Notes: generated by a model not told the origin, from the sequence alone. A stretch of DNA of 63,017 bases, filler included, from Hausera hauseri (GCA_046269625.1; 13 parts of 13 records of this genome joined end to end with filler, not necessarily neighbours in it), one strand, 5' to 3'; positions 4,831 to 63,017 are shown, counted from the first letter of the whole stretch. Numbers and translations are program-made.

Positions 4831-4930
4831 NNNNNNNNNNNNNNNNNNNNNNNNNNNNNNNNNNNNNNNNNNNNTTAATTAATTAANNNNNNNNNNNNNN
4901 NNNNNNNNNNNNNNNNNNNNNNNNNNNNNN
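4831..4930. other. Artificial contig spacer (Ns around TTAATTAATTAA); same spacer at 9172, 15959, 21076, 26155, 31791, 36208, 41359, 45525, 50241, 54441 and 58705
   Basis: Identical 100-nt layout repeated 12 times; TTAATTAATTAA gives stops in all six frames. Confidence 0.97.
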
Positions 4931-5051
4931 GCCAATAGCGATCTCTATTCTTCATTAGAAACATCGTGGAAACTATTCCATTCTCCCGAACCGTCGAAAT
5001 TCAATATAGTAACCATTTCAAAGACAGAAATTTCTCATTATTTTCGTCACA

Positions 5052-6971
5052 ATGATTTGTGAAGTATCTGGTTGTAGCCAAATGAACTTAACTAAAAGAA
5101 TTACGCAACTTTCACAGGATAATAAGTTCTGGTCCGTGATTTCACCAACAACTATTAAAGAGGCATTATCAAGCATGGAAGACATTTTGAAAAAGTTTCA
5201 AACCGTTTGGAATATGAAGGGTCGAAAACAATTGAGAATCATTTTGTTGTCGCCACCATTTTGCGGCCCCTTCGACGTTTGTCGACAATTAAAACATCGA
5301 TCAACACAATGCTCATTTGAACAACTATGAACTCACGATTCCAGAATTACCGGATATGTGTAACGAAGGTTGGAGTACCTGTATATTGTTGACTGGCCCA
5401 AATGATAATATTCAGTATATGGACTCGACACCATCTATTCGATTCCTACAGACATATCAGCCAAGGACCACTAGCATTCAGTATAAAATTGTCAATCATA
5501 AATGTATTTATGAGCAACATATTGGCCTTGTACCCGGAGTTTCCGGTTTTCCTCCAACACCGTTTACGTTGTATAAAAATAACGAAGAAACCGTTTCGAA
5601 AGAGCCGACAGATCAAAGCCTAAATGACGCTGACGAGCAATTAGAAAAATTGCGAGGCAGTGACAATAAAAGGGAGAATCCTACAACAGCGAGGTGAGAT
5701 TTACCATTTTGCATTGTTCGGTCGGCGGATATTTTTTTAATATTATCGTTGGCATAACATCACTTCCCTTCGGTTTTGTCTGTAAGGAAATACCCGAAGC
5801 GCGAGAATTATGGCGTTTCGCTATTTATTTCATAATAAGACTCCTATTTATGCCCATTTCAAATAGTAATTTAACGACATTCTATTCAGCGCAAATTGAT
5901 TTTCTACAATATTTAGCAGGTTTGCTCTCAGTAGGTTGTACGACTCTTTGGATTCGTAAATGATGTACTTGATTTAAAATGGCTACATAAATGACTATTG
6001 CTGACAATCACGTCGTCGCCTTCGTTGATCGTGTACAAGTTTTCAAATGGAACGACTTACACTGTTACACCGATGTTCTTTAGAATGTTTTAGACAAGTT
6101 TGTTGATTTTGGTCGCCTCTGTCATAATTATATGGCTATGCTGACCATTTCCCGTACAAATCCCATCATTATTTACACCGGTATAAAGAAAATTAAGGCT
6201 GGCCAAAATTTGGTTGTTGCAGTTTTATTAGCTGCCCCAATGTTATTGAATTTGCTACCAGTCCTCTTTGGCAGAACCATTTTTTCTATATTTGTTATGA
6301 TTCCATCTGCTTTCTGTCTTCTCGAAATTTCAAAACACAGCCGTTATACAGCGAAGGCGTTTGTTGCTGATACATTTTGTATTTATTCCGACACGACTTT
6401 TACCTTCGTTGCGATTCTAGGCCATTTCAACAAATTACTTCTTTCCTTTCGTCCTCAGATGATAAATTTCGTCTATTGTATTCAACCGTTGTTTCATTTT
6501 ATCCTTTGTCCACGACATTGCTTCTTGAGATATATTGCTACTGTCGACAAAGTTACCCATTCTACATTGAAATTTAAATTAGCTTCATTGGGTAAAATTG
6601 GTAAACTACGCTTTCACGTTCTGAAGTATTTGACACTCATAGGAATTCATGAACTCGACGATGACTACATAGAATTTAATAAAATGGTCCAGCCACCTTG
6701 TGGCATTGTTATATACTCGCCACTCGCACCTTGTTCTGCCAAACCCATCAAACCCAATACCGAGCCATCTATGGAAATTAATGGATCTGTAATGAGACGA
6801 AGTGGAATCGAGACACATTATCACAAAGTAACCCTCTTAACTTCGTATGACCATTTTGAGATATTACTCTACCCAGCTTGTCGTCTATCTTCGCCGTTTT
6901 CATTCGCCCTTTATGTCAATAATAACTTAATACGAACCGTACATGTCACACAACATATGGAAACATTATAA
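5052..6971 (+). pseudogene. Unknown, partly hydrophobic ORF region upstream of and mostly in frame with Gypsy gag
   Basis: ORFs starting at 5052, 5694 and 6132 share the frame of the gag pieces at 7059 and 7449. The motif AKPIKPNTEPSMEINGSVMRRSG matches AKPTKFDTKSSTEINISAMRRG upstream of the related element at 57797-58336. Confidence 0.5.
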
Positions 6972-24100: not shown

Positions 24101-25210
24101 GTAATGTTAATGCGTTTAGTTTGTCGTTAATGTTGTTGATTGTCTTTTGCAATGTTTCATTTTCTGTGCGTAATTGCGCAATTTGTTGCTGCAGCATTGC
24201 ATTTTGTTGTTGTTGGTCGGTTTTTAATGCTGCAAAAATAATTGGTGCTGCGTATGAATGCAGTACTTCGTATGCCTTGTCTGCCAGTTTGGCTAGCTTG
24301 TTAAGAGCCGTTGAGTCTTCAATCACAATTAACAAGGCTCTTATTTGAAGGGACAATGCATTTAAGAAGTAGCGGCGAAGAAGCTCGGGGCTGTGTTCAG
24401 AGGTTACGCCAAAGTTGTTGAGGTTAGACAAGAATGTGCGTAGGAATTCAGAAGGCTTCTGAAGGCCCATGGCGTTGTCGTTAAAGAACCTTTAAATTAT
24501 TGAATCGATTGAAGGCTCAGTAAGGTTGAGGACGGCATTATAGAGTTGTGTATATAGGTCAGCATGCTGAAGGATATCAATTATATTGGTGATTTTAGTT
24601 TTGATGGAGGCTGGTAAGTGGAAAAAGAGTCTATTGGCTTTGGATAAAGAGTTGACGACGTTTTGCTATTAAAGCCAAAATTGGTGCAGTTTTAGCCACG
24701 TTTGAGTAGAGTTTTGGCTATCGAGAAAGTATTCGGTGCAAGGTGAATGAGTGAGGAGGGTATGTTGTGTAGGGATGTTGGAAGCGCTGTGTTTGGGTAA
24801 GTGAATAATTGGAATTTGTTGTTTAGTGAGTTTGTCCATGGTGTCAGTTGTGGGTTACGAATCCATGCCACCACGGATACGGAAATAAATGGTGAGACAG
24901 ATATGGGTTGAAAAAGATTGTAGAGTTCCGGCGAGGGGTACTAGTTATCCGTTGTGTGTAAGGTAGAAATCAGAAGAGTGGAGTAGGGTGGAAATAAAAG
25001 TGTGAATGGTCGCAGTGTGAAAATGCAATGCTGTGTGTGTTAATGTGTTTGTTGTTGAGCAAAAAGAAAAAGAAATAAGAGTTGGTGTGCCCGGGGGCGT
25101 GTCGTGGTGCTAAAGCAAAAAGCGCCGTCTGACCTACTGGCGCAGGGTGGGCGGCCGGGACCTCAGCCTCGCCGCGACGGGTCCCAAATTTTGGTGTGAC
25201 CGATCTCTTA
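21176..25210 (-). mobile_element. Ty3/Gypsy LTR retrotransposon, CsRn1-like: gag-PR-RT-RH-IN, frameshifted
   Basis: Gag 23787-24900 (KPSEFLR...LLRRYFLNAL; two CxxHx9Cx3C-type knuckles); protease FLIDTGAAISLLP near 23640; RT RPCGDYRQLN...PYIDNIL; RNase H LTADAS...TDHKPL; integrase HSVHHPG...CVACQ...VHIDLVG. Confidence 0.93.
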
Positions 25211-25652
25211 CCTGTTATACTATAGAGCACGTTCAAAACCGGAAAAAAGTGTTTCAGGATCATTTTTGGCGCTAAAACTTTAGGTAGATTGTGTATACCA
25301 TGGAGACAAATCATCCTGCGGAGGTAATTGTAACTTCGTGACATATCAACTAAAATTCGCAAGTTATTAGCGGAATTTATGACAGGTTTGTAATTAGGAT
25401 TACTTACATGCTGCGATATCAGGGGGTTCCGCTGTCAATGTCTGATGGTCAGATGGCTGATTTGTCAGCGGTGACAAGTACAATCGACGGAAACGTCAGA
25501 AGCTCTCCAGTTGTTAGGAATGGTCGAATCTTCTTTATGCTAATCCCTTGTTTAACTCGAGAACTGAGCATCATGAGGCAAATATGGACCATATGTTTAA
25601 ATGATTGAGTGTTTGTTAATGGTAAAAATATTTTGGAGACATTTAGAATATC

Positions 25653-25832
25653 CTACTCTAAAATTGGTCCTGGACAGTTTGGAATTACAATGCATAGATT
25701 AGCATTTTCTGTGACAAAATGACGGCTCATTTTAGATGAACATATAGAACCAAGTGTGCATAATGCCAGACTGACAATATACTGATTACTATGATTAAAA
25801 TCATCCTTGAGAGAATTAGGAACAAGTACATG
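25653..25832 (-). pseudogene. AP1G1: Fragment of AP-1 adaptor complex gamma subunit (gamma-adaptin N-terminal region), degraded
   Basis: HVLVPNSLKDDFNHSNQYIVSLALCTLGSICSSKMSR resembles the conserved gamma-adaptin segment (NxxKNDLNHSxQ(F/Y)xxGLALCTLG...SxEMxRD). Confidence 0.7.
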
Positions 25833-25879
25833 AGAGTAGGGGAAAAAAGAGTGTTCTGGGCCAAGTGGGGGAGTCCGCC

Positions 25880-26154
25880 CACGCATCACGTGATCCGCCC
25901 ACGCGTCACGTGATTGGTCAAGTGATCCGCCTACACGTCACGTAATATCCGCCCACGCGGCACGTGATTGGTCACGCGATGCGTGCGAAAAGTCACCAGA
26001 CATTTGTTATTCTCACGCGACATTGTCCATTATCACGTGACATTGTCTAGACTCACACGTGACATTGTCTAGACTCACACGTGACATTGTTTAGACTCAC
26101 ACGTGACATTGTCTAGACTCACGTGACATTGTCTAGACTCACTTTACATTGTCT
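25880..26154. repeat. CACGTG-rich short repeats and 22-bp tandem repeat (GTGACATTGTCTAGACTCACAC), possibly a subterminal region of a DNA element
   Basis: CCGCCCACGCGTCACGTGAT-like units about 4 times, then about 5 copies of the 22/20-bp unit running into the gap. Confidence 0.8.
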
Positions 26155-31430: not shown

Positions 31431-32659
31431 CTATGTACCTTCTCCCCACTAACCTCTTCGAGTCGATATTATTCGAAAACCACTCGATCTATTTAAATTC
31501 TAATTGCACACTTGTATAGTGTACCGTTTTTCTAATGGGTTGCACCCGGTGCCATGTGCTAATCATAAATATTGAAATTGTTGAAAAACCTATATTGATT
31601 TGAGCCCATTTGCACATGTGCACCTTCACTGTACTGTGCGCAAAACGATGTGCACTAATGTGTACTACAGATTGGCACTTAGCCCTATCGATTAGATCAA
31701 TACTGCACTGTGCAACGATCAATATGTGCAAAGTGCAAAAGTGTCATGGCAACTGTGCATAAAGGCACGTCGCCATTCACGTGCCGATCGNNNNNNNNNN
31801 NNNNNNNNNNNNNNNNNNNNNNNNNNNNNNNNNNTTAATTAATTAANNNNNNNNNNNNNNNNNNNNNNNNNNNNNNNNNNNNNNNNNNNNGACGACGAAC
31901 TTATACTTACACAGGTTGTGATCCAATATCCCGAAACTACATTATTACCAATCGAAAATCCAATGATTATTCCGGAAATGAATATTCCCCCAGGTTCCAT
32001 AGTATACGGCAAACCCCCCAAATGAACCCAAACTACAAATGACTGATTCAGCACCTAATGAAGTATGGAATGCCTTATGAAAATATGATTCACTACCATT
32101 AAATAGACGAGTAGAATGCGTACCATTACTCCTGCCACTAACAAAGGACGACGTATTCTGCTTTTCAACAGCAAGAAAGTTACTTAAAACTCTTGTAAGA
32201 GAATTAAGAAGAAAACATAGGCGAAAACAACCATATATATTAAGTAGAGATTAAAACCAATAAGCGGGAAAAAGTAATCAAAGTAACAGCAGGAATGTTC
32301 ATTAAATTTACGGATCTCAAAAGAAAAGTATTAGATGAATTAGATCTAGATTACGGACTCCTTACCGGAAAGATTCATCAGATTACTATGGAATTTGGCA
32401 CTAAGAAAAAAGAAGGAAGACCAAGAAAGTGTGATTTTAACCCAATAAACGATGATGAAGAAAATCCCAAAGAAGAAAAATCAGAAAGGCAAAGAAAGAA
32501 AAGATCTTTGTTGAGAAAACGTAGGGAACAACGAGAAATGTTAGAAGATATATTATACGACAATTTCCAGAAATTTACTATTAGTAATGATGAAAATAAA
32601 CAAACAAAAATCCTGTTACGGGAACTTCGGATCAAAGTGAAACAGATGTACCAAAGGTA

Positions 32660-33050
32660 ATATTGACAACTGATAAACTCCTAGAACAATTAATTAAGAA
32701 AACTAATCGAAATCTACTCAAGAAGATACCAACAATTACAATAATTCCATTACAATCCATAAGAGAAACTGCGAGAAATTTCTAATCGCAAATTACGAGA
32801 TTGCTACAGAAGTATAAGCTGAAAAGAGGTTTAAATAAAGCATTGACACGATTATTAAAGGAATGTGATCAAAACCGATTGTTAATGGCACCAAGATGCA
32901 TAGTGGTTAGCTTCAAAAACCAAACAGAGATCGATGCCAAGTTACTCCATATAGTAAGAGATTTAGTCCATCATATGCATAAGTCAACAAAAGAATGGGT
33001 AACCAAACAAGGAGGTTGGGATGAAATACTCAAGAAATTTAACCCCACTA
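32660..33050 (+). pseudogene. Bcl-2-like domain upstream of Env in a Gypsy-type element (degenerate copy)
   Basis: BH2-like HMHKSTKEWVTKQGGWDEILKKFNP (W...GGW at 32996-33019); BH3-like LQSIRETARNF; in frame with the signal sequence and AYDC. Confidence 0.7.
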
Positions 33051-33069
33051 CATTAATATACCACAAATA

Positions 33070-36000
33070 TACGAATATCTCAGATTGGGTAGTACAAATT
33101 ATTCACCTGCTACTATACTTGATAGCTGTGAGTATTCTGAAAACCACAAAAGCGTTAGAAGCCTATGATTGTTCCAAACCGGAAATAACAGCCCGGCTTT
33201 CACTAGTGGATGTAGGCAAATGTTAAAACGCGAATCCGATATCTGTAAAGAAAGAAGGTCCTTACTATTACAGCCTGTATCAAAGAATCAGTTATCAACA
33301 AATGCCAGTAAAGGAATGTCAACTTAATAAAGTAGTATTCGCTCATAACTGAGGCCATAATTCATGGAATTCAGAAATTATTTTACCAGTGCTACCTAAG
33401 CCCGTGACAATAACAGTTGAAAATTGTCGAAAAGCCACTGATTCAATTCATGTAGGCCTCCAACAGCCAGTACAGGCAGGCATAGGAAAACTAGTTTATT
33501 CACGTATAGTTACAGCAGGACAAATATGGCCCGGATATGGTGGAGCTTGTAAAGGAGAAAGTATGACGATAAATAGACAGAAAGAATCCGCTGCAGTACA
33601 AATAGAAGATTTTACCGTCACCATAAAGGAATATGAAGTAAATTTCGATGCAATCACAGGAAAAATGTTAACTGCACCATCCTGTACATATTCCGATGGA
33701 GTAAGTACCTTAGGAGAATCCACCCTAGTTTGGGAAAAACGGTCGTAATATGTCCATTAGCTTTCCTTAAACAAGTATCTATGTACGAAATACAAGGTGA
33801 TTTATATTACGAAGATGAATACCAAGAACTTGTACATAACCATAATATAAGTTTACCTACCCCACGAACATTAAAACACACCATTTCCCTAAAAGTTTTA
33901 ATGTCATCCAGTGACAAAGATGGAATCGTATTGGCACGTAAAGGAGCCGTATCTACCTGTGGATCAAATGCAGTTTACTCCACATCATACGAGGATCTAT
34001 TCGTAATCAACATAACTATTGCAAATGCAGGAAAGCTACCAACCGAAGATATAAAGTAATACCTATATACGAATAACAAGATAGATTATATATCATATCG
34101 AATTGTACAATATTATGGCATTGAGAGATTGTAAAATCACTCAAAAACTGAATCAGCATGACTTGATACTAGCTAGGGAATTCCCAGAAGATATTGCCTT
34201 AATTATGGGATATCGCTCGGAACATTTGGTAGAGTACAAGGTGAAATACTCCGCGTGTATCAATGCCCTCCAATAGAGGTAACTCCAATAACAACCCTAA
34301 AAGAAAATTGTACAAATGAATTAATGGTTCATTATAACGATAAAAACATAATTAAAACCGGATACGTGGACCCTGTTACTCGAAAGTTATTGTTACCTGT
34401 GGTGCCGCGGACTCGAGCGTCACCACGGTCGAACTGCATCGGGACAGCATCGTTCGAAAGAATTTTGATGGTTTTACGGAGATTTGCTCAAAAAATGTGT
34501 CCAACCTACTCCAAAATTCTTTCAATACAAAAATTCTCGATGAAATTCGTTGTTTCAAATCAAGCTGCCTGTGATTTGAGCCGTGTCGTGTGCATATCAA
34601 ACCATCAGTCAATTTTAAAAATACAAAGACGTGTACTACTCAACTAGCTGCACCATTAACACAATTTGAAAGAAATGTTCGGTAATATCCGACAAATTAC
34701 CGCAACTCGTTGACCACTTCTGGCAGTTTGTTTAATCATGGTATCAGACACAATGATATTTGACCTATTAATCGATTTTGATAGTCGAGACACCAAAACC
34801 TTAATGGTGGTGAATCATTTATAATTAAATTCTAATCCTGCAATAATGCCTTTTTGAAAAATTTAGAGTTTGATATGATAAATTTTAAAACTTTTTACAG
34901 TTGTGCTAAATAATTCGAATTAAAAAATATTGTTGGATAAAAAGAGAAGAAAAATTTCAAGAATCGAAACTAAATACGAAGCCATTCAAAAATCAGCAGT
35001 GGTAAAGCCACGTAGAAACAGATTGGCGGTGGATTTCGAAAAATTTACAGGAAAGCCTTTATATTTTATCCACATTGATTTCAAGATTTCTCTACCTATA
35101 ATTAAGTGGCTAATGATCAGAAAATAGAGCAGTTCAATTTGAATTGAACCTAGACTGAGTCACTCAACGAAACGTGTTTTACCATTTTTAAATTCCGCGT
35201 AACTTCCATTTACAATCTTATGACTATGATTTATCTGTAAGTGAATATGGGATTCAAATTTCTTTGGTGTGAACAGTTGTCTCAATTTATATATAATTAC
35301 AGTAAAATCGGATCTTCAACAACTGCAATGTTTATTTAAACTAGTTTTCAATGAACAAGAGAGACACGTCCAACGAATTTTAAACTTGACAACAGGAAAA
35401 ATTACGAATTTGAAAAAAAAATTTCTGAAACCAAAAGCCATGAAAAGTAATTTTTGGTAAGGTCTACGCCGACAGGACCAATGAAGGTAAAACATTACTT
35501 TTTTGAATACAGAGTAATATTGTTTTTTACATGGAATTAAAATGCAGAGAAATCAACAAAATAGAAATTGATAATTAATAATTACAGTTGTTGGTTGATA
35601 CAGTTTGAATAAATGATTGTTGACAGGTTTTCTGATTTTGTTGCTTGCTGGATTAATTTGTACAATTTGGATTTACATTACCTACTGAAATCAGTATTGC
35701 ACCATGTTATAAAGACTTCTATCCAGCCTTCAAGCTTAACAATGGATGATTGACCAAGACACGCCAACCAACCATGATGAACATCCCACAGACGATTAAA
35801 TTATTATCGTTGGATAAAGGTATGCAATTTAAAGTAAATATAGAACTTCCCACCAGTGGATTATATTTCTTGAAAGACCTGAAAGCAGTAAGAAAACAGG
35901 TATTATTTCAGAATGTCCGAAAAAAAGTTATCACAGAATTTGTATATACTGTTACAAAAGGATCAAATTGTGTACCTAATTATGGAATATTACTGCCAAT

Positions 36001-36207
36001 CGACCACTTAGAGAAAACAGCTGAAAAGGTCCTTTTTGACTTCTAAAATAGATTCCTTATTTTTGGTCAAGTTATATATGGAGTCTTCGGTATATCTGTT
36101 ATAATTACTACCGTAATGGTCATATTAAGACAAATAGGAGCTGCAAGAAATATAAAGAAAGTACGTGGTTGTACATGGTAAATTATGCTGGGATGCTTTC
36201 CTTCAAT
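33070..36207 (+). pseudogene. Chuvirus-like envelope glycoprotein, disrupted and split by a solo LTR
   Basis: Signal-like WVVQIIHLLLYLIAVSILKTTKA then LEAYDCSKP..LSLVDVGKC; G.CKG; CTNELMV..YVDPVTRKL; C-terminal RFLIFGQVIYGVFGISVIITTVMVIL..GCTW. Collinear with the intact copy at 59326-61170. Confidence 0.85.
34398..35677. mobile_element. Solo LTR-like insertion (1,280 bp) with 5-bp TSD TTACC
   Basis: Ends TGT...ACA; TTACC at 34393-34397 and 35678-35682; removing it restores Env as ...VTRKLLLPTEISIAPC. Confidence 0.85.
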
Positions 36208-36307: not shown

Positions 36308-39300
36308 GTAATAGAACAATCCACACCGACGATATTAATATCAGACATGCACGGGTTAAAATGTATTAGAAAGGATATGTCATCACGCTGCGATGTAGTT
36401 ATGTATACCACTAACTACGAAGCATTCTTTGTAGCAGAAACAGAAATCGATATGAAAACGTACGATTTAAAAACACAAGATGTGCGGATCGAGGATTACC
36501 TCGAAAACCGAGACGATTATTTATATTACAAAGGGCAGATCGGAATAGCGGAAATATACTACAAAATGATAAAAAATGACTGCAGATTATATACTGAAGT
36601 CATGAGAACCAAACTGGCTTTAATTTACACCAATCCAGAATTGGCATCACCGATTATACCAATGAAAGACGGTGTTTTCCGACAGGTTACCGGAGAAGTC
36701 CTATTAACCTAAGAATGCGAAATAAAAGACGTGCCGATCAACGTAGACGAAAAGAGATGTATGCAAGAATTGCCGGTCAATTACGAGAATATGCCAAGGC
36801 TAGCAGTGCTACTCACCAGAGTATTACTGGAAAATTCGACTGAACCGACAATACTGAAGCAATGCAAGACGAGTCTGGGGGAACCAATATTTAGACGCAG
36901 TGGAGCCGACTGGATAAGCCTATTAAATAGAGGTACGGCTGCAGCCCCTAGTAATCTAACGGCGACAAATCTAATGAAAGGATTATCGGATGATAAATTC
37001 GAATATACAACTAATAAAGGAATTTATAGGCCAAAAGACATAAAAACTTTTAGGCAATTTTTAGCATTTTCGCGACTGCGGACGTATGAACTGAATCGGG
37101 CCATGTCAATGGTCATGGATGACACCCGCTTTCAAGCGAAATGGGAATCGTTACTTGGTGCTAATCACTATCAAACATTTGAGGAAGATTTCTGATTTTC
37201 AAACAAGCCACATCTGGATTCTTAGCCATCTAGTTTTTAGTCCAGCCATCATCAACGGCTATGAAATATTCACATTAACATGATTTTCCTGAAAAATTTT
37301 AACTGCAATTATATCACCCTTCAGGAAAATGCTAAAGGTCTATGAGGAAAATCGATGGAAAAATGACGTAAAACGCCATGTGGGGTACTATAATTGCAAA
37401 CGACGAGGAAAGCCCTCGATTTTGTATAGACGTAAAAATAAGAAAACAGTAATACGAAAGGATGATTCAGATGATGACGTGCCTAAGGGAGTAGAAGTGA
37501 GTTTCAGAATGAAGATGAACAAGATATACTCAATGTTTATCTCGCCATTACCCATCATGCCACCAACAGCACCGATATATGAAGACGGCGACTACAAATA
37601 AATCGTATCATGTAAGTCCAAAATCTATCAAAAGCCCATTAATTATGAAGATTCTTATGAAAAAACAAAACAATACGGAGTACTACGGAAAATGAATGTT
37701 ATCAACCGAAGACGAACAGAAAACGATCACGAAATATTGTACTTAAAAAGGATACCACGTCACATAGAATCGAAATCAGCGATCTTGAAAAACCCGAAAC
37801 TGTTTGATCTCGGATTCACTACCTTAGGAACTGCTCATTGACAGTCGCGTCAGTGAGATAGCAAATAATTTATACCCGAACGGAGAATTAAGACAGTTAA
37901 GAGAAAATATCCTCTCAGCACCATAAATAACAATAAATGGACACAGAGTCTCTATTATGAAACAGTCAAAGATAGCTACGGAACAGTAGCAGAAGGGAGA
38001 CCTTTCGCGAAAATACACATCAAAGATTAAAAAGTGTAATCATTAATTGACAGAGGATTATAGAAGTCTTTTATAAAATACGAATCAATACCAACCACAT
38101 TGCGAGAACAATTATGCCCACCGCTATCGTTGGATCTTGGTAGCATAGAAGCATTTGGACAAATATAGAAGTCAAAATTTAAATGGACTCCCACTGTTAT
38201 TATGATGAGTCAAGCACTTCAACATGAATTTGCGATAATGGGCCAGTTAACAGATGATGTAGTGCTAGGTTGTTATATATTGAAACAGATACCAGGCATA
38301 GCAATCGATATGCATAACGGAAACCTAATTAAGCTCGAACGAATGAAAAGAAAAAACGTAATAAAGGAAAGGAAATCGGGCGAAGTATGGATTCCGGTAG
38401 ATAAAGACATTCCTCTCAGAATCGAAATGATAATCATCGCAAAAATTCGATAGGACAAAAATCTGTCGGTATACTTCGAGCCTCAAGAGAATATCGATCC
38501 AAACTTTATCTTTAGCAATATTCTATGTAGAGTAGTGACGGGACGAATACCAATCAGATTAGTGAATAATGCACCAATTTCCGTAAGATTGTATGCTAAC
38601 ACTACTCTGGGTCATACTCACAGAGCATCGGCGGTAACAGTAGAGGAAAAACTATACAAATGTGCTGAATTTCCACCTCACGTTGAAACCAAATTTTTTC
38701 CTGAGGCGTATGGAAAGTTCTACGAATTACTATGTAAATACCGTTTAATAATCGCACAAAATGAGGAAAACATAGGCAGAGCAAAACCTTGATATTAACA
38801 ATCTCATTAAGAGAAAACCCGGTTCGAGTGATGAAATTGGTTTAGAAGAACAGAAAATGCCCAAATGTTACCCACCTCCCCATTCATTAAGACCATAAAT
38901 AACTAAAGAGGTAGAGCGAATGTTAAAGTCCGATATAATTTGACCAAGTTACTGATCATGGTACTTACCTATTCTTATGATTAAAAAGAAAGGAACTACA
39001 AAACATCGATTTTGTATAGACTATCGGGCATTAAACACGATGATAATGAAAGACTCGTTTCCATTACCGTCAGTAAAGAAAGCTTTAGATAGACTATCAG
39101 GAGCAAAATGGTTTACCACTCTCGATTTACAATCGGGATACTGGCAAGTGGAAATCAAAGAATAAGATCGATATAAGATAGCATTTAAAACACACGATGG
39201 CGTATATGAATTTAATGTTATGCCCTTCGGCATCACCACCGGATAAGCTATTTTTACTAGAATGATATATAAAATACTTATGGGATTTGAGCATGACTTC

Positions 39301-41358
39301 ACATACCTAGATGACGTAATAATAGCATCAAAAACAGATGAAGAGCACTTAAAGGACATTGAAGATACACTCATGCAATTGGAACAAGCACGGGGCACAG
39401 ATGGGCACAGAACGCAGTGTCATACCTCGGACACATAGTTGGAGAAGGAGGATCAAAACCGGATAAATCCCTGCTAAATAAAATATCTGATTGTATGGAA
39501 CCACAGAATCAAAAAGAATTAAGACATTGGTTAGGACTATGTGTGTTTTATGCCACTTACGTGCCGGACAATTCAAAAATTAATGCGCCACTATATTGTC
39601 TACTCAAAAGAGAAACTAAATGGAGATGGATGGAAGTGGAACAAAAAACATTCAACGAAATGAAGAAAATTTTGACAAGCGAACCAGTTTTAAGATACCC
39701 TGATTTTAACCTACAATTCATCATTAAAACAGATGCAAGTAAAGAAGGTATAGGATACGAATTAGCTCAGAAACGAGAAGGCGAAGAACTAGAACATCCA
39801 GTAGCCTATGGAGGAAGCTCGTTAACAAAAGCAGAAAAAAATTACTTGGTTACCGAATTAGAAACGTTAGCCGTAAAGGAAGCACTATGACACTTTAATG
39901 TCTATGTCTATAAACAAAAGATTATAATAGTGACCGACCACAAAGCAGTTACGACATTGAAAGGACGAGCTAATAATCCAACATGTAAATTAAACCGTTG
40001 GATCGAGGAAATTTCACGATATAATATCGAATTCCAATATAAACCGGGTAACAAACACGTCGACGCCGACGCACTATCAAGGTTAAGGACAAAAACGAGT
40101 GCGATCACCATAATAAAAAACCCACAACTCGAACAAATAATTGAACAAAGAACTCTAATACTAGATAAATTACAGCAGAACAAGCTAATGTTATTCAGCA
40201 AATTATCGAGTTTGTACAAAATGACAAAATGCCAAAAGGACGACAATTGAAAAAGCATCTATAGAAACACGGACATAAATATCATGCATCGAACCAAGAT
40301 AATATCCTATATTTGCGAGCGAAAAGGAAGAAGACTAATAGTTATTCCCAATGGATTGTTCATCGAAGTACTCATGGCCGAACATGACTCATATTTAGTC
40401 GGACATATGTCTTGGAAGAAGACATTGGAAAGGATATTAAATAAATACTACTGGCCAAGTATCTATATTGATGTAAAGAAATGAGTAGGAGCGTGCAAAG
40501 TTTGCGCGACAAAACAGAAGAAAACAAAAGAGTACGTGGCAGAACTAAAACCCAAAAACGTACCAGATAGGCCCATGCAAGCCATGTCTATGGATAATGT
40601 AGAAACCTTGCCGAAAACTCACAAAAATAACAGATATATCCCAACATGCGTGGATCGACTAACGCACTTCGTTGAATTGGTGGCACTATTAGATCAAAAG
40701 GTAGAAACTTTAGCCAACGCAGTGGTAAGGAAAATTATCTCCAGATACGAACCACCAAAACAAATCCTAACGGATAGAGGAAGGAACTTCACAAGTAAAT
40801 TATTCGAAAAAATAAATAAGATATTTGAAATTGAACGATTAACCACAACCGTGAACCACCCCCTATGTAATGGAATGGTCGAGCGAATGAACAAAACAGT
40901 CATTCGTATACTATGAACAGTAGTAGCCAAAAATCAGAAGGATTGGGACGAATTCCTAGAAGGGACACAGTTCGCAATTAATACAATCCCACATCCAGCA
41001 ACAGGCTTTACACCGTTCTTTATGATGTACGGGCGAGAGGCAATCTTATCCACTGATCTAGGCGTGACACAGTAAAAAAGTAACCTCGCCGATCTACAGC
41101 AAAATTTTGCCGAAGTCTTACAGACAAGATTGCAAAAGTGTTGCAAAGTTGCATAAATATTATCACTCAAATACCAGGAACAATTTAAAAAACAATATGA
41201 TAAAAAGACTAAACCCCACAATCTGGAAAAGGGAAATTTGGTTTATATACATTACCCAGTCGCGAAAAAAGGTACGTCTTTGAAATTAACACGTGCTGGA
41301 AGAGGACCATATGAAATCATCCGCACAAGGCCAAGCACGGTCTATATTAATAAAAACG
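36308..41358 (+). mobile_element. Gypsy-type element with order Env(C-half)-PTAP linker-PR-RT-RNase H-IN, degenerate
   Basis: Env: YLENRDDYL..NDCRLYTEVMRTKLALIYTNP..QVTGEVL..CMQELPV..GIY; PTAP at 37563-37574; decayed protease (VVLGCYIL); RT RFCIDYRALN..LDLQSGYWQ..YLDD at 39304; RNase H IKTDAS..TDHKAV; integrase EHDSYLVGH..LTDRG..NGMVERMN..GPY. Confidence 0.92.
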
Positions 41359-52590: not shown

Positions 52591-54789
52591 CTTGTTTCAT
52601 TGTTCCAGCATTTGTCTAAGTATAAATATCTAGTCCATGCATAACTTACAATTTCTCAGGTTTGTGTGTTCTTTCTAAAGCGCATTCTCCACTCTCTGAT
52701 AACTGAGAGCTGAATTTGCGAACTCTATTGGGAATAGTGTCACTAAATACTTTACTAGTGAGAACAGCCCATCATATCAACAGATCTATTTTCCTGCGTA
52801 TTATAAAGATGTTCTTGTTCTTGTTTGATCTCCACATCGTCAGCTCTTCTGGATGAGCCCTTATAAGGGCTGTAGTCCTAGGAAGGACTCTGGAGTAGTT
52901 GCGCTGAGCATTCCTGCAGTCCCAGTGGTGTCTAGGAGGGTGGTCCGAGGTTTCTCAGGCTTTAGTGCAATGCTTGACCTCCTAGAAGTGATCCATTTCA
53001 ACCGGGGACCATGACGATAATCCCAACGTTGGCCAGAATTTCTTGTTTCCAGGACGCACTGCGTGGAAGTATTGAGAGGTCTTGGCCAGTAATGGTCCTT
53101 ACCCTGGCTAGATCGCGGATCGATCTCAGTCTTAGCGTCCCATTATAAAGATGTGTCCTGTTTTCCACTATTGCTACCTTTGTTCTTGCTTCATTCATTG
53201 CTTCTTGTCTGCGATAGTATTTTCTGTTCTTCTGCTACTTCTTTTATCTCTGAGGATACTTACGATTGTGGTATGTTTAGTAAAGTATAGACGTATTCTT
53301 CATTTACATAAGTTTTTCTTTCACTTCACTCGTTGTATGACCATTCTGAATTGTAAGTGATCCTTCGTTCTTAATGACACATTTTCCTCCCATCATGTTT
53401 ATAATTTCATAAAGTATTTTCATGTTGGTGTTGTATGCTGCTGTCTCTGCCTCTTCTGCTAATGTATCATTTACTGTCGTTTATCCGAATAGCATATTTT
53501 CTTTATTTCTTATTTGTGTATTTTTGTATGATGTGTTTTTCATTGGGTCTTCTGTTTTCCTATCACGAGAACACGTAATCCAGTAGACCTTCTGGTTTGT
53601 TCCATCTGTAACCACTCTGTTTTGGTCACTAAAGTGAATACACTTTTTTCCGTTTACATCACCTATACTTTCACTGTCCATTTTGTCCTCACTGTGGTCC
53701 TTGTTCTCCACACAATGAGACATCTTGTTTGAAGGCTGCATCCACTACTTCCTGCACACGCTCGGATCATCTTTCTTGCGAGTCTTCCTCTTCATTTTCT
53801 GCTGGTTCATTGCATGCTATTATAGCTAGCTTATCACGTGCTGAGTTGAACTTCCTACATATAAATGCTTTTTTTTTTTAATAAGTGATCCCCTCTATAT
53901 GAGTTTCAAAAACAGCTTGAACAGTACCCGATCTTGGGAACTTCTTGCATTCTTACAAGGTCCAATTGTATCCGTTCATTTCTAAATCTAATGCAGTTAG
54001 TTTTTCTGCTTGAATTTGTGTCCCAATATTCCAACTTCCAACTTGTAAGAATGTTTATGTGATACTGCATTATGTATAGTATCAATTACTTTGTTGTTAC
54101 AGTGGGTTCCCACTGTCGAGTTTTTGACTCCCTGGTCCTGACTTTCACAAGCGCCGTTCATACAATCAATTCATTTTCATCAACATTTATGGAATTTATC
54201 TCAGCGGACTCTGTAGCGGTTTGATTTATTACATACAGTTTGCTATACGGTCTATTAGTCCCCAGTTACAGCACGATAATGGAAATGCAGTGTACACATT
54301 TTTTTCCCGTTCCTAGAGTGCGTAATGAAAATTAATTAATGATAATAAAAATAACCATAACAGGATATTATCATTGCTGTTGTTCGTGGTGGTGGTAGTG
54401 TTGGCGTTTATGTTAATATTTATAATAAATATTCCGGCCGNNNNNNNNNNNNNNNNNNNNNNNNNNNNNNNNNNNNNNNNNNNNTTAATTAATTAANNNN
54501 NNNNNNNNNNNNNNNNNNNNNNNNNNNNNNNNNNNNNNNNCAACATTGGAACAATAGTTCCTCTTTCAGAGCCTCGCGTGAAAGATTGTGCTTCATGACT
54601 TTATCCAGAAGTTTCTCAATTGCCTCGAAGTAAGCCGCCGGTTCTGCTCCATTCATTTAGCATTTGAGTGCTTTTTTCAGATTTTCGCACAGCGTTGAGG
54701 ATCGGGCGAAAGCCTTCCGTAGTCTCTTTTGATATCCCGTTATTTTCGCATCTACTATCTCGTATCTTTCTTGTGCTTCTTTCGCCAAG

Positions 54790-57620
54790 AGACATTTGGC
54801 GAAATTTATCTGCAGGTTATGCTGGTGTAAGCGTTGAAAGATTGATATGATGTGTTCTTTGTGTTGTTTGGTTGAGAAAGAAACAATTAATATGTCGTCG
54901 ATATAGGGATGAGCATATGATAAATGGGAAAGGATAGTATCGATGTGGCGTTGAAAAGTCTGCTTAGCATTCCGTAAGCCAAAAGGCATGTACAGATATT
55001 CGTATAAGCCAAAAGGAGTAGTGACGGCTGTTTTTCTATATCCTCGGGTGCCACAGGAATTTGATGGTAGACTTTGGATAAATCAATAATAGAATAAATT
55101 GCAGTTGAGTGCAGACGGTGTAAGATATCCTTAATAAGTGGCAACGGGTATGCATCCATTATTGTCAAAGTGTTCAACTGACGATAATCACCACATGGTC
55201 GAATTGTTCCGTTCTTCTTTTTCACGACATGTAGTGGTGACGACCATTGGTATTTGGAGCGATGTACAATTCCGGAACGTTCTAGTTCTAGAAATTTGGC
55301 TTCAGCTGCCTGTCTACGACGAGGAGATAAAGGACGCACCTTTTGGCGGATAGGTCGTTCATATTGTGTCACAATGTGGTGAAAAGTGGTTTTTTCTGGT
55401 GCAAAAGACCTATCTTTTTGAATAATTCTAGAACAAGATACGCGAATAAATTGCTGCAAACTTGAAAGTGATTGTGAAAATTTTGGTTGTAGCGAGGAGG
55501 TCTTACGGGTAACTTTAGATGTATCAGTAACAGTAGCAATTCGGACGTTATTTGGTGATCGAGAATGAAGTGGTATTCGATACAGGATGGTAGTATTAAA
55601 GATGGTATTGTAGTTTGTAGTTTTATCGAAGGATTTGGCAGTGGTAACAGAATTACTTTCATTGCTGTGTAAATCCCAATCGCCAATAACATTGTTCTTT
55701 AATGATTTTATAAAACAAGGTGCCATGGTTGTAAAAAAAGGTTTGTTTAACGGGTTTTTTAATATCGGCTTTTGAGCTGCATTCACCCGTACGACAGCCG
55801 AACTTGTATCGTCGTGATCGAATCGCTCCTTATTGCGACCACTTGTTAAGCAGCGCTGTTTACAATCGACATAGAGGTTATAGTGCAAAAGAAAATCGGA
55901 TCCTAAAATGACTGTTTGGATATTGGCTACGGTAAATGTCCAGTGGAAAGTTTGAATAAATTTCGGAAGAATAAAAGAAAGCCTACATGTACCGGAAACA
56001 TGTAGTGGTTGTGCGGAAGCTGTAAATAAAGGTTTAATTTTGGATGAAGTGTGTTGAGTTACAAAGGTAAGCGGTAGTAAAAAAATCGCTGCGCCTAAAT
56101 CGATAAAAAAATTTATGTGTTGAGGTGTCGGTACGATGATGGAGACTTTTAATGTGAACACGGCGAAAGAAATTTTTCGGCTATTAGGAAGTAAAGAATG
56201 GCCTTCGCCAGTTCTCACCGAAAACTCTGGCAGTGAAGTTAGTTTTTTGAAAACGGGAAACCTGAGCGACTGCTAGAAACGAAAGTTGTGAGTTCGTCAT
56301 TTGCATGGTAGGATTTGTTTTTAAACGTGCAACCTGGGATACATTTGTGTTCATTATGTCTGAATTTTGCATGATATATGCAAATTATGTTATGAGTGTA
56401 GATTAGATAAATAATAGCTACACCCTAAACAGCATTTATTTGCTTTGTTGTTAAATTTGTTGCGATAATAACATACGAATGACCGTGTTGAAAACGATGT
56501 CCGATTTCTGGAAAAAGAACGTGTTTAATAAGGCGAGAGAGCATTCTGTCGATGTAAAGAAAAGTCATTCATTTTATCATTGATGATGTTGATTGTGTGT
56601 TAGAGTGCCGCATTTTTGGCGTGTAATTAGTTCAAATGGTGTTCGATGGATGTATGACGTTGATTGTCATCAATCGTAATAGCGGCTGATATGATGGGTT
56701 GTGATTGAATTTGTAAGACTTCGCATGCTTTATCTGCCAATTCACCCAATTTATCTAAGGCTGTAGAATTTTCAACAACGGTAAGTAAAGCCCTAATTTG
56801 AATGGGTAAGGCATTAAGGAAATATCGTCGAAGTAGATCCGGATTGTGTTCCTTGGTGGTGCCTACAGTACGTAAGTGAGCTAACGAGGTGCGTAGAAAA
56901 TCACTAGGTTTTTGTGTCCCCGTTGCGTTTTCGTGAAAGAAGCGTTGAATTATAGAGTAAATTGGTGGTTCTATCAGTTTTAACACAGCATCGAACAATT
57001 GGGTATAAGGGTCAGGGTGTTGAAAAATGTTCAGTAAGTTGTGGATTGAGGCCTTTATGGAATTTGGTACAAGGTACATTAGATTATGGGCTTTGGATAA
57101 CGAGTCTGAAATACCGTTGGACTGTAACCAGAGTTGATGGAAGTGGAGCCAAATTTTGCTAGACTTTTCATTATCTATAAAGTATTCAGTGCAGTGTGGG
57201 GTAGTATTGATAGTATTTTTGTGAGAAGAATTTGTATTGGTTAAAGTAGGTGGATGACTTGAATTGGGGTAGTACAGAATGGATTTCGATTTTGTGGTCA
57301 GCTTATCGGTGATGTCACTGGTTGATGGAGAAATCGTCCCGCCGCGGATTCTAGGATTGATATGTATACACAGATAGTTATGTGAGGCCGTGTGGGAAGT
57401 CGACTAACATGAAACCGTTGTGAGTCAAAAAGAAATCGCTGTAGGCGGAGGTATTATAAATGATAGCGTATAGTGATGTTTCGATACGTTGTCTGACATG
57501 TACTATTTGTATTAGATTATTATTAACATAAAGGTAGAGGGGAAATGATGGTAATGTACTTTAAACCGGGTAGTGTGATATATCATTTGAAGTTAAAAGA
57601 GTTGCTTTAGACGTTTCTTT
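54790..57620 (-). mobile_element. Ty3/Gypsy CsRn1-like element: gag-PR-RT, truncated after RT
   Basis: Gag GTQKPSDFLR..LLRRYFLNALP; FFIDLGAAIFLLP..ILGSDFL; RPCGDYRQLN..IDLSKVYHQIP..MPFGLRNA..PYIDDIL. Clear nucleotide homology to 6825-9171. Confidence 0.92.
56239..56248 (-). promoter_or_regulatory. -1 frameshift slippery site A AAA AAC plus gag stop
   Basis: The pol ORF (54887-56218) lies in the -1 frame relative to the TAA at 56241-56239. Confidence 0.75.
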
Positions 57621-57796
57621 TAAATATGTCCGATCTGCTGACTCACTATGGTTTATGGATCTGTAGCCGATGAATATTAAAAAAAACGACAATAACTAGA
57701 AGGGGACGGATTCTGTCCATAGTCAGAAGCTCTAGTCAGGTACACGCTGTAATCAGAAGAATAAATCGGGCCCACTTTGCTATAATGCGCCTTGAT

Positions 57797-58700
57797 TCAA
57801 CCTCGTCTCATTGCAGATATATTAATCTCAGTAGATGATTTAGTGTCGAATTTTGTAGGTTTGGCAAGGTATTCAGTGATTACCATCTCGTTTTTGCATT
57901 GTAATATGCAGCATAGTATACGCGTCTGTAGTAATGAATGATAAAATGGCAAACTTTTATGAGGTGAATGGACAGGGAAGGTGACATGAAAAGAAAACTT
58001 TAAGTAAATAAATCTTAAGTAACGACCGCAAAGGTGGGCTATGTGGTAAAGGGGTGAAGTTGTGCCAACAGCGAACATGTTAGGAATAAAAACGTATAAA
58101 AAAAAGAAAAAGGGATCGCTACTGAGAAATGAATTAAAAAAATTGTCGCCGGGCGAAAAACAATTAATGAAATATCCTACCTCATCGTGCACTGGTCTCT
58201 CCACGGTTGGCAGTAACATTTTGTGCTGTGGGTACGGCAGATCGACTTTTTCATGTCGTGTCGTCTTGTGAGCGATCTGAATACACAACGACTTTATGAA
58301 CGAACCCGCCAGTTTGTAACGTTGTCTGATTTTCATCGTATCTTACATGCTTACCGTAGTTTGACATGATCATTCTGTTTGCTCCACTCTGCAGTCTAAT
58401 AAGGATAATATCACCAGTCGACAGCAGCTGTTGTTGTTTTATCTGTTGACTGAATCTGCATCCGCGATCCATGCACCGAGTGATGACATCTGTGAAATCT
58501 ATCGGCACTTCGATTAATGCAGGATAATCGAATGGTATTTTGTGTGGCAGGTTAGTACCCCATAATGACGTCATGGAAAGTGTACACGGTTTGATGAGCT
58601 GTTTCAAAAGTTTGTCGACAAATGACAGTAAATGGTCATGAGAAAATGGCAGCAGTTCCAGCTGCAGTAGTTTCATAATGGCAGATATTTCTGCATTGGT
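57797..58700 (-). pseudogene. Unknown upstream ORF region of the CsRn1-like element, homologous to 6132-6971
   Basis: Shared PxM...PL(F/Y)H...(F/Y)LR(Y/F)I and AKPxKxxTxxSxEINxSxMRR motifs. Confidence 0.5.
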
Positions 58701-58806
58701 GTCANNNNNNNNNNNNNNNNNNNNNNNNNNNNNNNNNNNNNNNNNNNNTTAATTAATTAANNNNNNNNNNNNNNNNNNNNNNNNNNNNNNNNNNNNNNNN
58801 NNNNGA

Positions 58807-61800
58807 TTATTATTGGCAGGAACAGACGGTACCCCGGAATCGGTGGACATAGATCCATTATTAAGAACATTATTGGCTAGATTACATACGTCATTCGCCT
58901 CGTTTGACATGCAGACAATAATACCCGATGAATTATTTACAACGCTACACAACCATATGCTACGAATAAGTAGGCAATTTTATGAAAATTTAGAGGAGGA
59001 ACGAATAAATGAGCTACACGAGATGGATATCTTAGAAAAGATGTTCGCAACTGGAATTACACGTGAAAAAGCTCGGACGGCGATATCGTATCTATTATAT
59101 AAAATAATAGTGATAAACCATCAAACGCAAAACTTAGAAGAAATAGAACGGAATATACGAACGGCTGTGAAAATTTTGAAAGATACATTAGGTAATTGGG
59201 CTCAATGTAGAGGTGGGTGGCTAAGTAGTCTGATGACTAATGTAGTAAGGTCTGGAGACCGAGAAAGACCCATACAGACGCCACTTCCGACACAACCAGG
59301 TATCGCTAGGGCAGGTATGACAGGCATGTCAATGATGGAGATCATTCAAATTCTCCTAATAACATCACTGCTTATGCCAAAAGCGGTAGGTATAGTAGCG
59401 TATGACTGCTCTAAACCCAGCGAAGGTCAAAAGTACTCTTTGGTAGATTTGGAGAAATGCCCAGAAGCTGACCCAGAACAATTAACAACGACAGGTGGCC
59501 TGACATACTGGGTATACCAAGAGTCTGAGTTTATAAAAGCGAAAGTCAGGGAATGTTACGTAAAAAGATCATTTTTCTTGTTTAATTGTGCTTATTATTC
59601 GGGAAATACAGCCATAATTGAGCCTACGACACCTTTTGAGCCGATTATTATATCACGAGCAGAGTGTCAAGACGCTTTTAAGATTGGCATTATTACGATC
59701 CAAAACGCGCATATACCGGCAGTACGAAATCGAATAAAATATACCAGAATATACCGGGCAGGAAGAATAGATAAAACTGCAGAAGGTTCGTGTAAAGGAG
59801 TGGACTATGACGTAGGAGGCACTATTGCGCCTAGAACGGTAGCTATCGAAGATTATCAAATCCAGTTAAAGGAGTATGAAGTGTTGTTCGACTCACAAAC
59901 AAAATTGATGACAACTATGAGTGAGTGCGAGTACGATAACGGAGAATGTGATACTGGGGAGTCAAAAATGACATGGGAAACCCTAGCAAGCAAATGTCAA
60001 TTGACGTTATTAAAGGAAGGAAAATTTAATAAAACGGTAGGAAAATCAGCGGAGAAAGAAGCAGCAACGTATAAAGAGGGAACCAAGGAAGTAAAGATGA
60101 CGGAGGTAGCTACGATTGTGTATTCAGAAAACCCAGAAGATATGATGCGATTTAAGATCACGGGAATAGCAACTAAGTGTAATGAAGAAGTAACGAAAAC
60201 TAATTACAAGGGTATCTTTTTATCGAGAAAAGAAATACCTGGTGCAAAGACCAAGATAGATAAGAGAGATATAAAATTGACGCAATATTTCGACAATAAA
60301 ATCGATTTTCTGATCAATTATGTAAGAAAAGAAATTAGGGGTTTATATCGCGAAATAATAATGAACGAGTGCAAGTTGAATTACGAGATAATGCGCAATA
60401 AGATGGCGCTGGTGATAACAAATCCGGATATGGTAGCGCCAGTGTTACCTTTTGGTGATGGAGTTATTGGAAGAGTAATGGGCGAGATTTTAATAACAGT
60501 AGAATGTAAGAAGGTGGAAGTATCGATTAGACCTACGGAAGAATGTACAATGGAATTACCTGTTGTTTACCATTCGGAAGCACGATATGTTATGCCAGTG
60601 ACTAGGATACTTCTCGATGTTAATGTAAAGCCCACTCTGTTATACAATTGTACTTTTAATATGTCACCAATGTTTAAGATCGATAACGATAAATGGATAA
60701 GGATGCCGAAAAGAGAGCCAGTGCCTAAACCGGCGACGTTGAGTCTGATTAACTTACAAAGAAATCAGAAGTTTGAACCACTAACAGGAATATCCCAGGG
60801 AGGAATTTATACCCAACAAAATTTGGAGGACTATCGACGGATGTTATTGTTCCCACAACAAAGACAGCGAGTAATAACCGAATTGACGAGGAGAGTAATG
60901 TGGGATGGCGAAGGATCACCACAATGGGAAAACCTGATGGGTAAAGACTATTTAAAGAAGGTAACGAAAAGTATAATGGAAAAGATATGGGGAAAGTTCT
61001 TATATTTTGGTCAAGCAGCCTCCGGCTTTCTAGCGATATATTTTATTATCAGCGCCCTACGAACGGTATTTACGGCCCTAGGCAAAGCATATGGAATACA
61101 TGCTGCAGTAGGATGCTCGTGGAAGATTTTAATAGCGGTAATACCGGCGGTAGCAAGTTGCTTCTTGGCAAACCACGATGCACGATGGAAGAGGAAAATA
61201 TTAAAAAGGAGAGACATGAAAGAATCCTTGTATAGTATACCCAATGATAATGATGCGGAATATAGCCAAGTGAAGGAAAAGAAACGAGTACCCAATATTA
61301 AACACTTAATGCTGAGGAAACGGAAATCTAAGTACAGACAGAGGCTAATAACAGACCTGCCTCGTCTAGATCCTGTGGATGAATACCATGGACAAGAGTA
61401 TAACGACCAACCGTTGTTAAATCCTTCAGCTCCCCGATATGTAGTACACACAGGACTATACCCTATGCAACAAGTTCAACAGATGAGACAACAGTTGGAT
61501 GAAACTATGATCCCGTATAAACGTGAACCCACATATATTGTCAATGATAAAGATGACCGCCAACCACCGGTAAGACCCGAAATAGAAATAGAAGTGAATG
61601 GATACCCTATGATGGCTTTGTTAGATACTGGGTCAACTACGACGATAATGGGAAGAAGCCAACTACCAAAGGAATTGAAAAGGAAATTGCGACGACCGAC
61701 TACCACATTGGTGAATATAGGAGCATTTGGCACCGAAGAAGAAATTAAAACGGTTCTAGATGCCAAAATTAAGATTGGTGACCAAATTTTGAATCACACC

Positions 61801-63017
61801 ATACGAATAGCCGATAACCTTACTAACGAAATTTTAATAGGATGTGACGTATTAAATCAATTGGAAGATGCATACATTGACATGAGAACATGCCAACTTA
61901 AGACGTTCGGCGAAGACTGTAACGAAGGAATGGTCTCATTAACGAGAGACATCACGATTCCACCACGATCGGAGATGATAGTTCCCGGAAGAATAGAAAG
62001 TAGAATATTACCGGAAACTATTTATTTTGAACCATGCCCACAAGTCATGGAAAAGTACGAAGTCTTGATTGCCCCTCACGTGGATAAAGTAAGAAATGGA
62101 AAAATCCACTTACGAGTCTGTAATACAACAAATAGAGAAAAACGATTGCGAAAAGACACCAGATTGGGAAAAGTAACAATAACTGAAGAAATAATAAAAG
62201 AAGAGACCTTTTCATTGATATCAGATGTAGATAAAATAGAAAAGATGATGACAGAAAAACAGAAGAAGAAACCAAACGAAGGTAAAAGAAATAAAACTAC
62301 GAATATTGACTGGAATGAGAAATTGCAAAAATGCGAAATTTTGAGTAAGGAGGAAAAAGAGATGCTAGTTAAGTTGTTAGAAAAGAATACCAGTCGATTC
62401 GCACAAACTGATTATGATCTCGGCACCATGAAAGTAATACAACATGTTATCAAATTGAAGGATGGACAGGACAAACCAATTAAGAAGAGACCATATCGAC
62501 TGGCATATGACAAGAAGCAGGAAGCTCGTAAAATAATAAAGGAAATGAGGGAAAATAAGATAATTCGACCAAGCTGCTCACCATGGACAGCACCGGTAGT
62601 AATGGTTAAAAAGAAAGACGGAAGTATGAGATTTTGTATAGACTATAGAGCTTTGAATGAAATAACTGAGACAGACACATACCCATTGCCAAGAATCGAC
62701 GAGATTTTAGATAAATTACACGGATCAACTATATTCACAACCATTGATTTACAAAAGGGTTATTGGCAAGTGGAGGTTAAAGAAGAAGATAAGCCAAAAA
62801 CAGCCTTCTCAATTGGAGAAGGGTTATGGGAGTTTAACAGGATGCCATTTGGATTAAAGAATGGACCGCCAACTTTTCAGAGAGGAACAGAACTCCTGTT
62901 GTTAGACGCTCCACATGCCATGGTATATATAGATGACGTGATAATAGCATCACCAAATTTTCAGCAACACTTGAAGGATCTACAAGATCTCTTTGATAGA
63001 TGTGAGATAATGGGCCT
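58807..63017 (+). CDS. Uninterrupted partial polyprotein (about 1,403 aa, open at both ends): Bcl-2-like domain, signal, chuvirus-like Env, TM, PSAP, aspartic protease, Gypsy RT
   Basis: Hand translation in frame +1 found no stop. WAQCRGGW 59197-59220; signal 59326-59391; AYDC 59398-59409; TM region 60997-61170; PSAP 61423-61434; LDTGS 61621-61635; RFCIDYRALN..IDLQKGYWQ..MPFGLKN..YIDD 62926-62937. Confidence 0.93.

Follow-up and report, generated by a model that had tools for sequence, protein, structure and literature searches.

An open frame with Env ahead of protease and reverse transcriptase in a contig that likely belongs to a Burro-type Ty3/Gypsy element

Results

Organization of the contig

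We studied a stretch of 63,017 nucleotides (the window) made of 13 short contigs, 4-7 kb each, joined by 100-nt spacers that carry stops in all frames. This report concerns the contig at 58805-63017; the contigs to its left are separate records and not its neighbours, and were therefore rejected as genomic context. Translation of the plus strand gave one frame without a stop, 1403 codons at 58807-63015, which fills the whole 4,213-nt contig, while the remaining five frames contain 32-160 stops each; the chance of such an open run at the same base make-up is about 1e-46. Since the contig spans its whole record, the ORF has neither start nor stop and is cut at both ends. The initial annotation described this frame as about 4.2 kb, stop-free and absent from the ORF track. 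Its length and openness agree with our translation, and no closed ORF is indeed listed there; the frame is listed with open ends because the contig is truncated on both sides, which that annotation missed.

The order of features along the frame was: a Bcl-2-fold domain, an internal signal, a class III Env, a membrane anchor, a retropepsin, a weak dUTPase-like stretch and a reverse transcriptase (RT). The Pfam domains thus lie in the order first proposed, with Env ahead of protease and RT. The motifs AYDC, LLDTG and YIDD start at 59398, 61618 and 62926, and hydrophobic segments were found at aa 171-197, 731-758 and 761-792. The features, with the evidence for each, are as follows:

58805..63017, plus strand: whole contig, putative inner part of a gene for a single-ORF Gag-Env-Pol polyprotein; both ends open
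58843..59241, plus strand: predicted Bcl-2-fold domain, aa 13-145; Pfam Bcl-2, profile of relatives, predicted model and fold matches
59332..59397, plus strand: putative internal signal sequence of Env, aa 176-197; hydropathy 2.05 and position before the YDC motif
59392..60996, plus strand: predicted ectodomain (aa 196-730) of a class III fusion glycoprotein, herpes gB / chuvirus G type; PF24664, model and Foldseek
60997..61170, plus strand: putative membrane anchor region, in which aa 731-758 are hydrophobic and conserved, with a second segment at aa 770-788 and then a basic stretch; hydropathy
61171..61551, plus strand: putative cytoplasmic tail and low-complexity linker, in frame and without a stop; translation, lowest contig depth in runs X1 and X2
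61552..61896, plus strand: retropepsin, catalytic LLDTGS at 61618; RVP E 1.8e-9
61933..62193, plus strand: degenerate dUTPase-like stretch between protease and RT; PDB matches and a homologous stretch in relatives
62362..63015, plus strand: reverse transcriptase, YIDD at 62926, truncated by the contig end; RVT_1 E 8.2e-25

The Env region

The Pfam family Monjiviricetes_fusion (PF24664) matched aa 176-812 with an E-value of 1.9e-89. A model of the ectodomain built from 81 sequences reached a pLDDT of 91.2, and in Foldseek it retrieved chu-like virus glycoproteins (E 6e-38, TM up to 0.73) and herpesvirus gB (E 2e-15). An atlas search with Env matched only PF24664, rhabdovirus G and gB clusters. 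The modelled ectodomain matches a gB-type class III fusogen, and it sits between a signal and a membrane anchor, as in HSV/gB-type ENV proteins. The initial annotation had taken this segment for a Cys-rich AYDC-type glycoprotein and had staked its reading on a match to a viral fusion protein; the Pfam and Foldseek results bear it out.

In the six proteins measured, the hydrophobic stretch ends 6-11 residues ahead of the YDC motif, and we infer that signal cleavage occurs directly ahead of AYDC. At the other side of the ectodomain, the segment at aa 731-758 was strong in 11/11 proteins measured, and a second segment rose above the same threshold only in the query (P0001) and in P0003. The query has two strong hydrophobic segments past the ectodomain (1.82 and 1.92), so that a second membrane crossing may also occur; eight Lys/Arg residues follow within aa 789-812. 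One crossing, most likely by aa 731-758, is the simplest reading of the region.

The Bcl-2-fold domain

Ahead of Env, an unnamed helical domain had been noted at first; the domain is present, and what was missed is its probable fold. The Pfam Bcl-2 match is weak (aa 51-138, E 0.069), and a profile built from five relatives matches Bcl-xL with an E-value of 5e-4. The model of aa 13-145, made from five sequences, had a pLDDT of 88.5, and in a wider structural search its best 33 rows were all cellular or viral Bcl-2-fold proteins aligned over the full domain length. Epstein-Barr virus BHRF1 gave Z 12.3 and an rmsd of 3.6 over 130 residues, against Z 6.0 for the first unrelated row; BAK, Bcl-2 and A179L are also among the fold matches. 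Foldseek ranks agreed with this search, at a best E-value of 3.7e-3 and none under 0.001, and an atlas search with the domain sequence returned no usable match. The upstream domain is thus predicted, from its model, to have a complete Bcl-2 fold.

A GGW motif is invariant in all five aligned carriers of the domain. What we take to be the BH2-like W...GGW is retained, and what we take to be the BH1 NWGR and BH3 Asp positions are lost; a killer role is therefore unlikely and BH3 binding uncertain, as far as the residues tell. The Bcl-2-like profile matched 7 of the 21 family sequences examined, five of the seven being those from which it was built; the two independent loci, L001 and L002, gave i-E values of 4e-22 and 2e-17. 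Long relatives such as P0004, P0009 and L003 had no match to this profile.

Protease, dUTPase-like stretch and reverse transcriptase

Behind Env and in the same frame, Pfam RVP matched aa 923-1020 and RVT_1 matched aa 1267-1400, and so the LLDTGS protease and YIDD RT of the initial annotation are confirmed. The RT is 44-68% identical to those of family members. Between protease and RT, dUTPases were the best three of five PDB matches over 87 residues, weak at E 0.037-0.056, and a stretch homologous to this region is present in five relative clusters.

Relatives and gene order

Relatives were found by sequence search, and all the close ones come from metagenome assemblies. Among 157 proteins fetched, ten besides the query (seven distinct clusters) carry both Env and RT; their Env is 25-37% identical to that of the query and lies N-terminal to RT on the same chain in 10/10. 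Env also precedes RT in frame in three of four fetched loci (L002-L004, frames of 2693-3703 codons), and L001 ends inside Env. A search of relatives for the Env-protease-RT order had been proposed as a check on the first reading, and these proteins and loci returned that order. As judged by sequence comparison, the Env-RT order is not chimeric, because it is the same in all these proteins and in three of the four loci.

Gag-type domains stand ahead of Env in the same ORF in P0002, P0004, P0009, P0014, P0019, L003 and L004. The closest long relative, P0002 (47% over the matched part), carries Gag-CCHC, a weak ubiquitin-like domain, a Bcl-2-like domain and Env, and L002 holds Bcl-2-like, Env, protease (PR), RT, RNase H (RH) and integrase (IN) domains within one 3426-codon frame. 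RH and IN follow RT in relatives whose RT is 56-63% identical to the query. Relatives thus extend the contig to Gag upstream and to RH-IN downstream, giving the full family order Gag, cargo, Env, PR, RT, RH, IN. The PR-RT-RH-IN order of Ty3/Gypsy (Metaviridae), with Gypsy-type RNase H and H2C2/rve integrase, was found as PR-RT on the contig and RH-IN in the relatives. An element of the Gypsy lineage whose Env is joined in frame to the protease and RT that follow it, as initially annotated, is therefore upheld by the domain order and by the RT, RH and IN of relatives.

Metagenome assemblies show a broad family, with Env identities of 25-47% and a Bcl-2 domain that some branches retain and others lack. 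Weak ubiquitin matches were seen in P0002, L001 and L003, and Ank_2 in P0156. BIR and MATH had no match in the relatives scanned; these two and ankyrin had none on the 4.2-kb contig, and no long self-repeat (a sign of LTRs) was found in loci L001-L004.

In a FastTree of 131 Env rows, 18 family rows fell on one side of a branch with an SH-like value of 99, apart from free-standing chuvirus-like and BEL/Pao-linked glycoproteins; two of the 18 (P0016 and P0018) are Env-only fragments labelled by score. The tree omitted 25 of 156 matching proteins, which were duplicates or covered fewer than 400 query residues (P0002 among them).

Several further features were observed in the relatives. A separate ORF for a DEDDh exonuclease (RNase_T) follows the polyprotein in two of the three loci reaching past integrase (L002 10617-12104 and L003 12085-13470). 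The C-terminus of P0004 (about aa 3480-3865), viewed by eye, resembles a second signal-plus-anchor membrane protein after integrase, with a further protease-like repeat. Retropepsin-like repeats number seven in P0156, four in P0009 and three in P0004, against a single one, located between Env and RT, in the query. L001 has one in-frame stop near 3058, between its Gag-ubiquitin-like-Bcl-2-like part and the Env signal. P0010, a family polyprotein, is recorded as a hypothetical protein from a Flavobacteriaceae MAG; mis-binning of an animal contig is the probable cause.

Other contigs of the window

The contig at 36308-41358 holds a decayed relative with the same order (Env C-terminal half 36317-37242, protease 37998-38312, RT 38788-39390, RH-IN 39402-41348), interrupted by stops and frame changes. 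At 31891-36207, Env-like sequence occurs in two broken stretches, at 33086-34416 and at 35705-36205, with 26-35% identity to the Env of the query. Broken relatives of the same order in other contigs of the window point to an inherited element. The contig at 16059-19147 has a piece coding for RNase H and integrase that shares 38-49% identity with family members; a hydrophobic segment and more open frames come after it, and this may represent the 3' portion of a related element. Other Gypsy-like fragments lacking env (gag-like, RT, RNase H) lie on the minus strand at 21176-26154 and 54541-58704. The contig at 9272-15958 is low-complexity DNA with a 15-nt period, and its frames give matches to pentapeptide-repeat and SV2 luminal profiles.

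Copies, variants and the question of assembly

Part of the stretch is present in ten public runs of differently coded organisms, none of the ten being on record as RNA, and four of them were mapped onto it as short contigs. In X1, 12,593 contigs mapped; all 30 bins were covered in both X1 and X2, and three indel rows and five low-depth joints were listed. Depth was lowest in the linker, at 61343-61483. No contig of the public runs spans the whole stretch or the Env-protease junction in one piece, the longest listed there being 202 nt; a single contig of low depth (6.4, side 24 letters) leaves out 61064-61887. Many diverged copies exist.

Among the 40 variants listed, which are the best supported of 425 rows and no random draw, synonymous changes number 29, where random transitions would give 33% (P 3e-7). 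This excess fits a many-copy family under selection, and the contig may be a majority path through it and not one genomic copy. The initial annotation took the lack of lesions as a sign of recent activity or selection: selection on the frame agrees with the variants, but where a family has many copies, an open frame on one short contig does not by itself mean that a single genomic copy is intact.

The contig could also be an assembly product, either a majority path through diverged copies or a chimera of an Env copy and a Pol copy, no genomic copy being open throughout. The very many variant contigs of X1 speak for this, as do the best public run, which holds only 0.61 of the words of the stretch, the lack of a single spanning piece, the broken state of the other family copies in the window and the in-frame stop of L001 between its Bcl-2-like domain and Env. 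Against it, one mis-join cannot explain why relatives with no more than 25-47% identity keep this in-frame order, and the indel rows and low-depth joints are few along bins that are all covered. We regard this explanation as improbable; it could hold for the intactness of the 58805-63017 contig without altering the layout of the family.

Comparison with known elements

We read the contig, with good confidence, as a central piece of an endogenous retrovirus of the Burro type (Ty3/Gypsy), probably carried by a planarian or related flatworm, which would encode one Gag-cargo-Env-Pol polyprotein. Planarian Burro/GYPSM1 has Gag, SUMO-like, BCL2, in-frame Env, PR, dUTPase-like, RT, RH and IN in one ORF (PMC6431247, 2019, whose section on Burro reviews Jurka 2007 and Grohme 2018). 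The Env-before-Pol order, which the initial annotation did not know from any described LTR element, had thus been published in 2019 for Burro (PMC6431247), and the GAG-ENV-POL order is given for three phyla in the consulted passages of PMC13524379. Like Burro, the contig has one ORF, a BCL2-like domain directly before env, and env in frame ahead of PR-RT. The env of Burro, located between gag and pol, is related to mononegavirus fusion glycoproteins, and the predicted Env of the contig is likewise of mononegavirus type. The dUTPase-like motif of Burro between PR and RT may have its counterpart in the weak dUTPase match at that place, and its upstream SUMO/ubiquitin-like domain in the weak matches of P0002, L001 and L003. 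The two differ in extent: the contig is a 4.2-kb internal piece, and Burro's Gag, LTR, BIR, MATH, ankyrin and internal region of up to 25 kb would lie beyond it. In relatives complete from Gag to IN the ORF measures about 2,700-3,900 codons, below the 4,873-5,140 of Burro. Gag before Env was seen only in relatives (P0002, P0004, L003 and L004), whereas env ahead of PR-RT is on the contig itself.

Nematode endogenous retroviruses with a continuous gag-env-pro-pol ORF were reportedly described by Sacco et al. in 2022, and we know of no Bcl-2-like domain in these non-canonical elements. They are cited in PMC13524379, whose consulted parts report that Nematoda, Bryozoa and Platyhelminthes have GAG-ENV-POL elements carrying a gB-type Env. 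The nematode retroviruses share with the contig the flipped Env/Pol order in a metavirus and an Env from an RNA-virus-type glycoprotein, while the nematode ENV row examined in that paper lacks the Env motifs of the query.

Smed_errantivirus_1-6, which are GAG-ENV-POL errantiviruses of HSV/gB type in group Platyhelminthes_C1a (PMC13524379), are according to the same parts of the source like the contig in having Env before Pol, a gB-type class III Env and many copies; the searched passages of that paper make no mention of Bcl-2, Burro or ORF fusion. The six Schmidtea Env rows resemble the query in motifs and cysteine spacing, compared by eye only. In the ENV table, Schmidtea rows account for VYQE 5/5, TGES 3/3, NYKGI 3/3, MRF 5/5 and LKEY 1/2, so that four of the five motifs tested occur only in Schmidtea rows, a biased choice of motifs made after seeing the rows. 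Kinship to Burro is likely; it rests on domain order, on the by-eye comparison of supplement rows and on these motifs.

The same layout could also belong to an independent GAG-ENV-POL lineage of another animal (a nematode, a bryozoan or an unsampled phylum) outside the Burro group. GAG-ENV-POL elements are not monophyletic, being found in the three phyla named in the consulted parts of PMC13524379, and the host assignment rests on comparison of elements, parts of the stretch being present in ten differently coded organisms. We consider this reading less probable still than an assembly product: the Bryozoa and Nematoda ENV rows examined there lack the motifs common to the Schmidtea rows and the query, and Burro was the sole element for which the literature passages searched describe a BCL2-like domain ahead of env. 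An exogenous reverse-transcribing virus that spreads horizontally among small aquatic animals, suggested by the intact class III fusogen, a Bcl-2-fold cargo as in DNA viruses and presence in ten studies, is very improbable beside decayed relatives with stops and frame changes among transposon contigs of the same window, the integrase retained by relatives, a scan of a viral-contig collection with a single protein that gave three pattern matches and no relatives (its reach being close relatives only), and published relatives that are genomic, with up to 215 copies in the parts of PMC13524379 consulted.

Two further groups were considered and rejected. Anakin BEL/Pao elements carry a chuvirus glycoprotein (PMC7642597, cited in PMC12440569 and PMC13524379) of the same Pfam family as the query, but, as those sources describe them in part, on a BEL/Pao backbone with env after integrase. 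In the contig Env precedes PR, and neither P0001 nor its close relatives matched DUF5641, DUF1759 or Peptidase_A17; P0096, in which Env follows DUF5641, is placed apart from the family clade by the Env tree. Troyka was rejected since no Troyka encodes Env, according to the passages of PMC12440569 consulted, and the element of the contig does.

Discussion

Predicted processing and function

The Burro-type element would be translated as one polyprotein comprising Gag, cargo domains, Env and Pol, beginning at Gag in the cytosol. The internal signal at aa 176-197 would thread Env into the ER, where signal peptidase would free its N-terminus, and a single membrane crossing, most likely by aa 731-758, would bring the chain back to the cytosol. 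In this topology Gag and the Bcl-2 domain would be cytosolic before the signal, Env luminal, and protease and RT cytosolic past the anchor, so placed that the retropepsin could cut Pol from the Env tail and process Gag. Both this processing by signal peptidase and retropepsin and the functions that follow are what we infer from the layout. Env would serve cell-to-cell spread of the element, particle and fusion being both predicted, and the Bcl-2-fold domain, remaining cytosolic, would most likely damp host cell death or signalling.

Signal-peptidase cleavage would leave the signal helix joined to the Bcl-2 domain, which it could anchor as the tails of cellular Bcl-2 proteins do. The hydrophobic signal helix begins 24-56 residues past the BH2-like GGW in 6/6 carriers. 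That the Env signal sequence doubles as a tail anchor, leaving the Bcl-2-fold domain bound to the ER membrane once signal peptidase has cut, is a tentative and rather doubtful proposal. It was not found in the literature passages searched, the 2026 Burro1 paper and the 2018 genome paper being outside their scope; the texts and supplements of Sacco 2022, Grohme 2018 and Lee 2026 may already treat the Bcl-2 domain and the processing of the polyprotein. If true, the retroelement would have a membrane-bound, viral-style Bcl-2, similar to cellular Bcl-2, that would keep producer cells alive during production of the fusogen.

Significance for the Burro group

The contig adds one more divergent member to a published layout. 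Its predicted models add structure-level support, the "BCL2-like motif" of Burro corresponding to a complete Bcl-2 fold and Env to a gB-type class III fusogen. The breadth of the family in metagenome assemblies is also documented, both in the divergence of Env and in the presence of the Bcl-2 domain in some branches only. Burro1 protects planarian stem cells through an IAP-like region, another anti-apoptotic domain, according to the consulted parts of PMC13465017, and its transcripts are under PIWI control, according to those of PMC8532177. Burro1 already having an anti-apoptotic cargo, a second such cargo is of moderate interest. A one-to-one Gag-Env-Pol polyprotein raises membrane threading, processing and cell-to-cell movement as testable questions.
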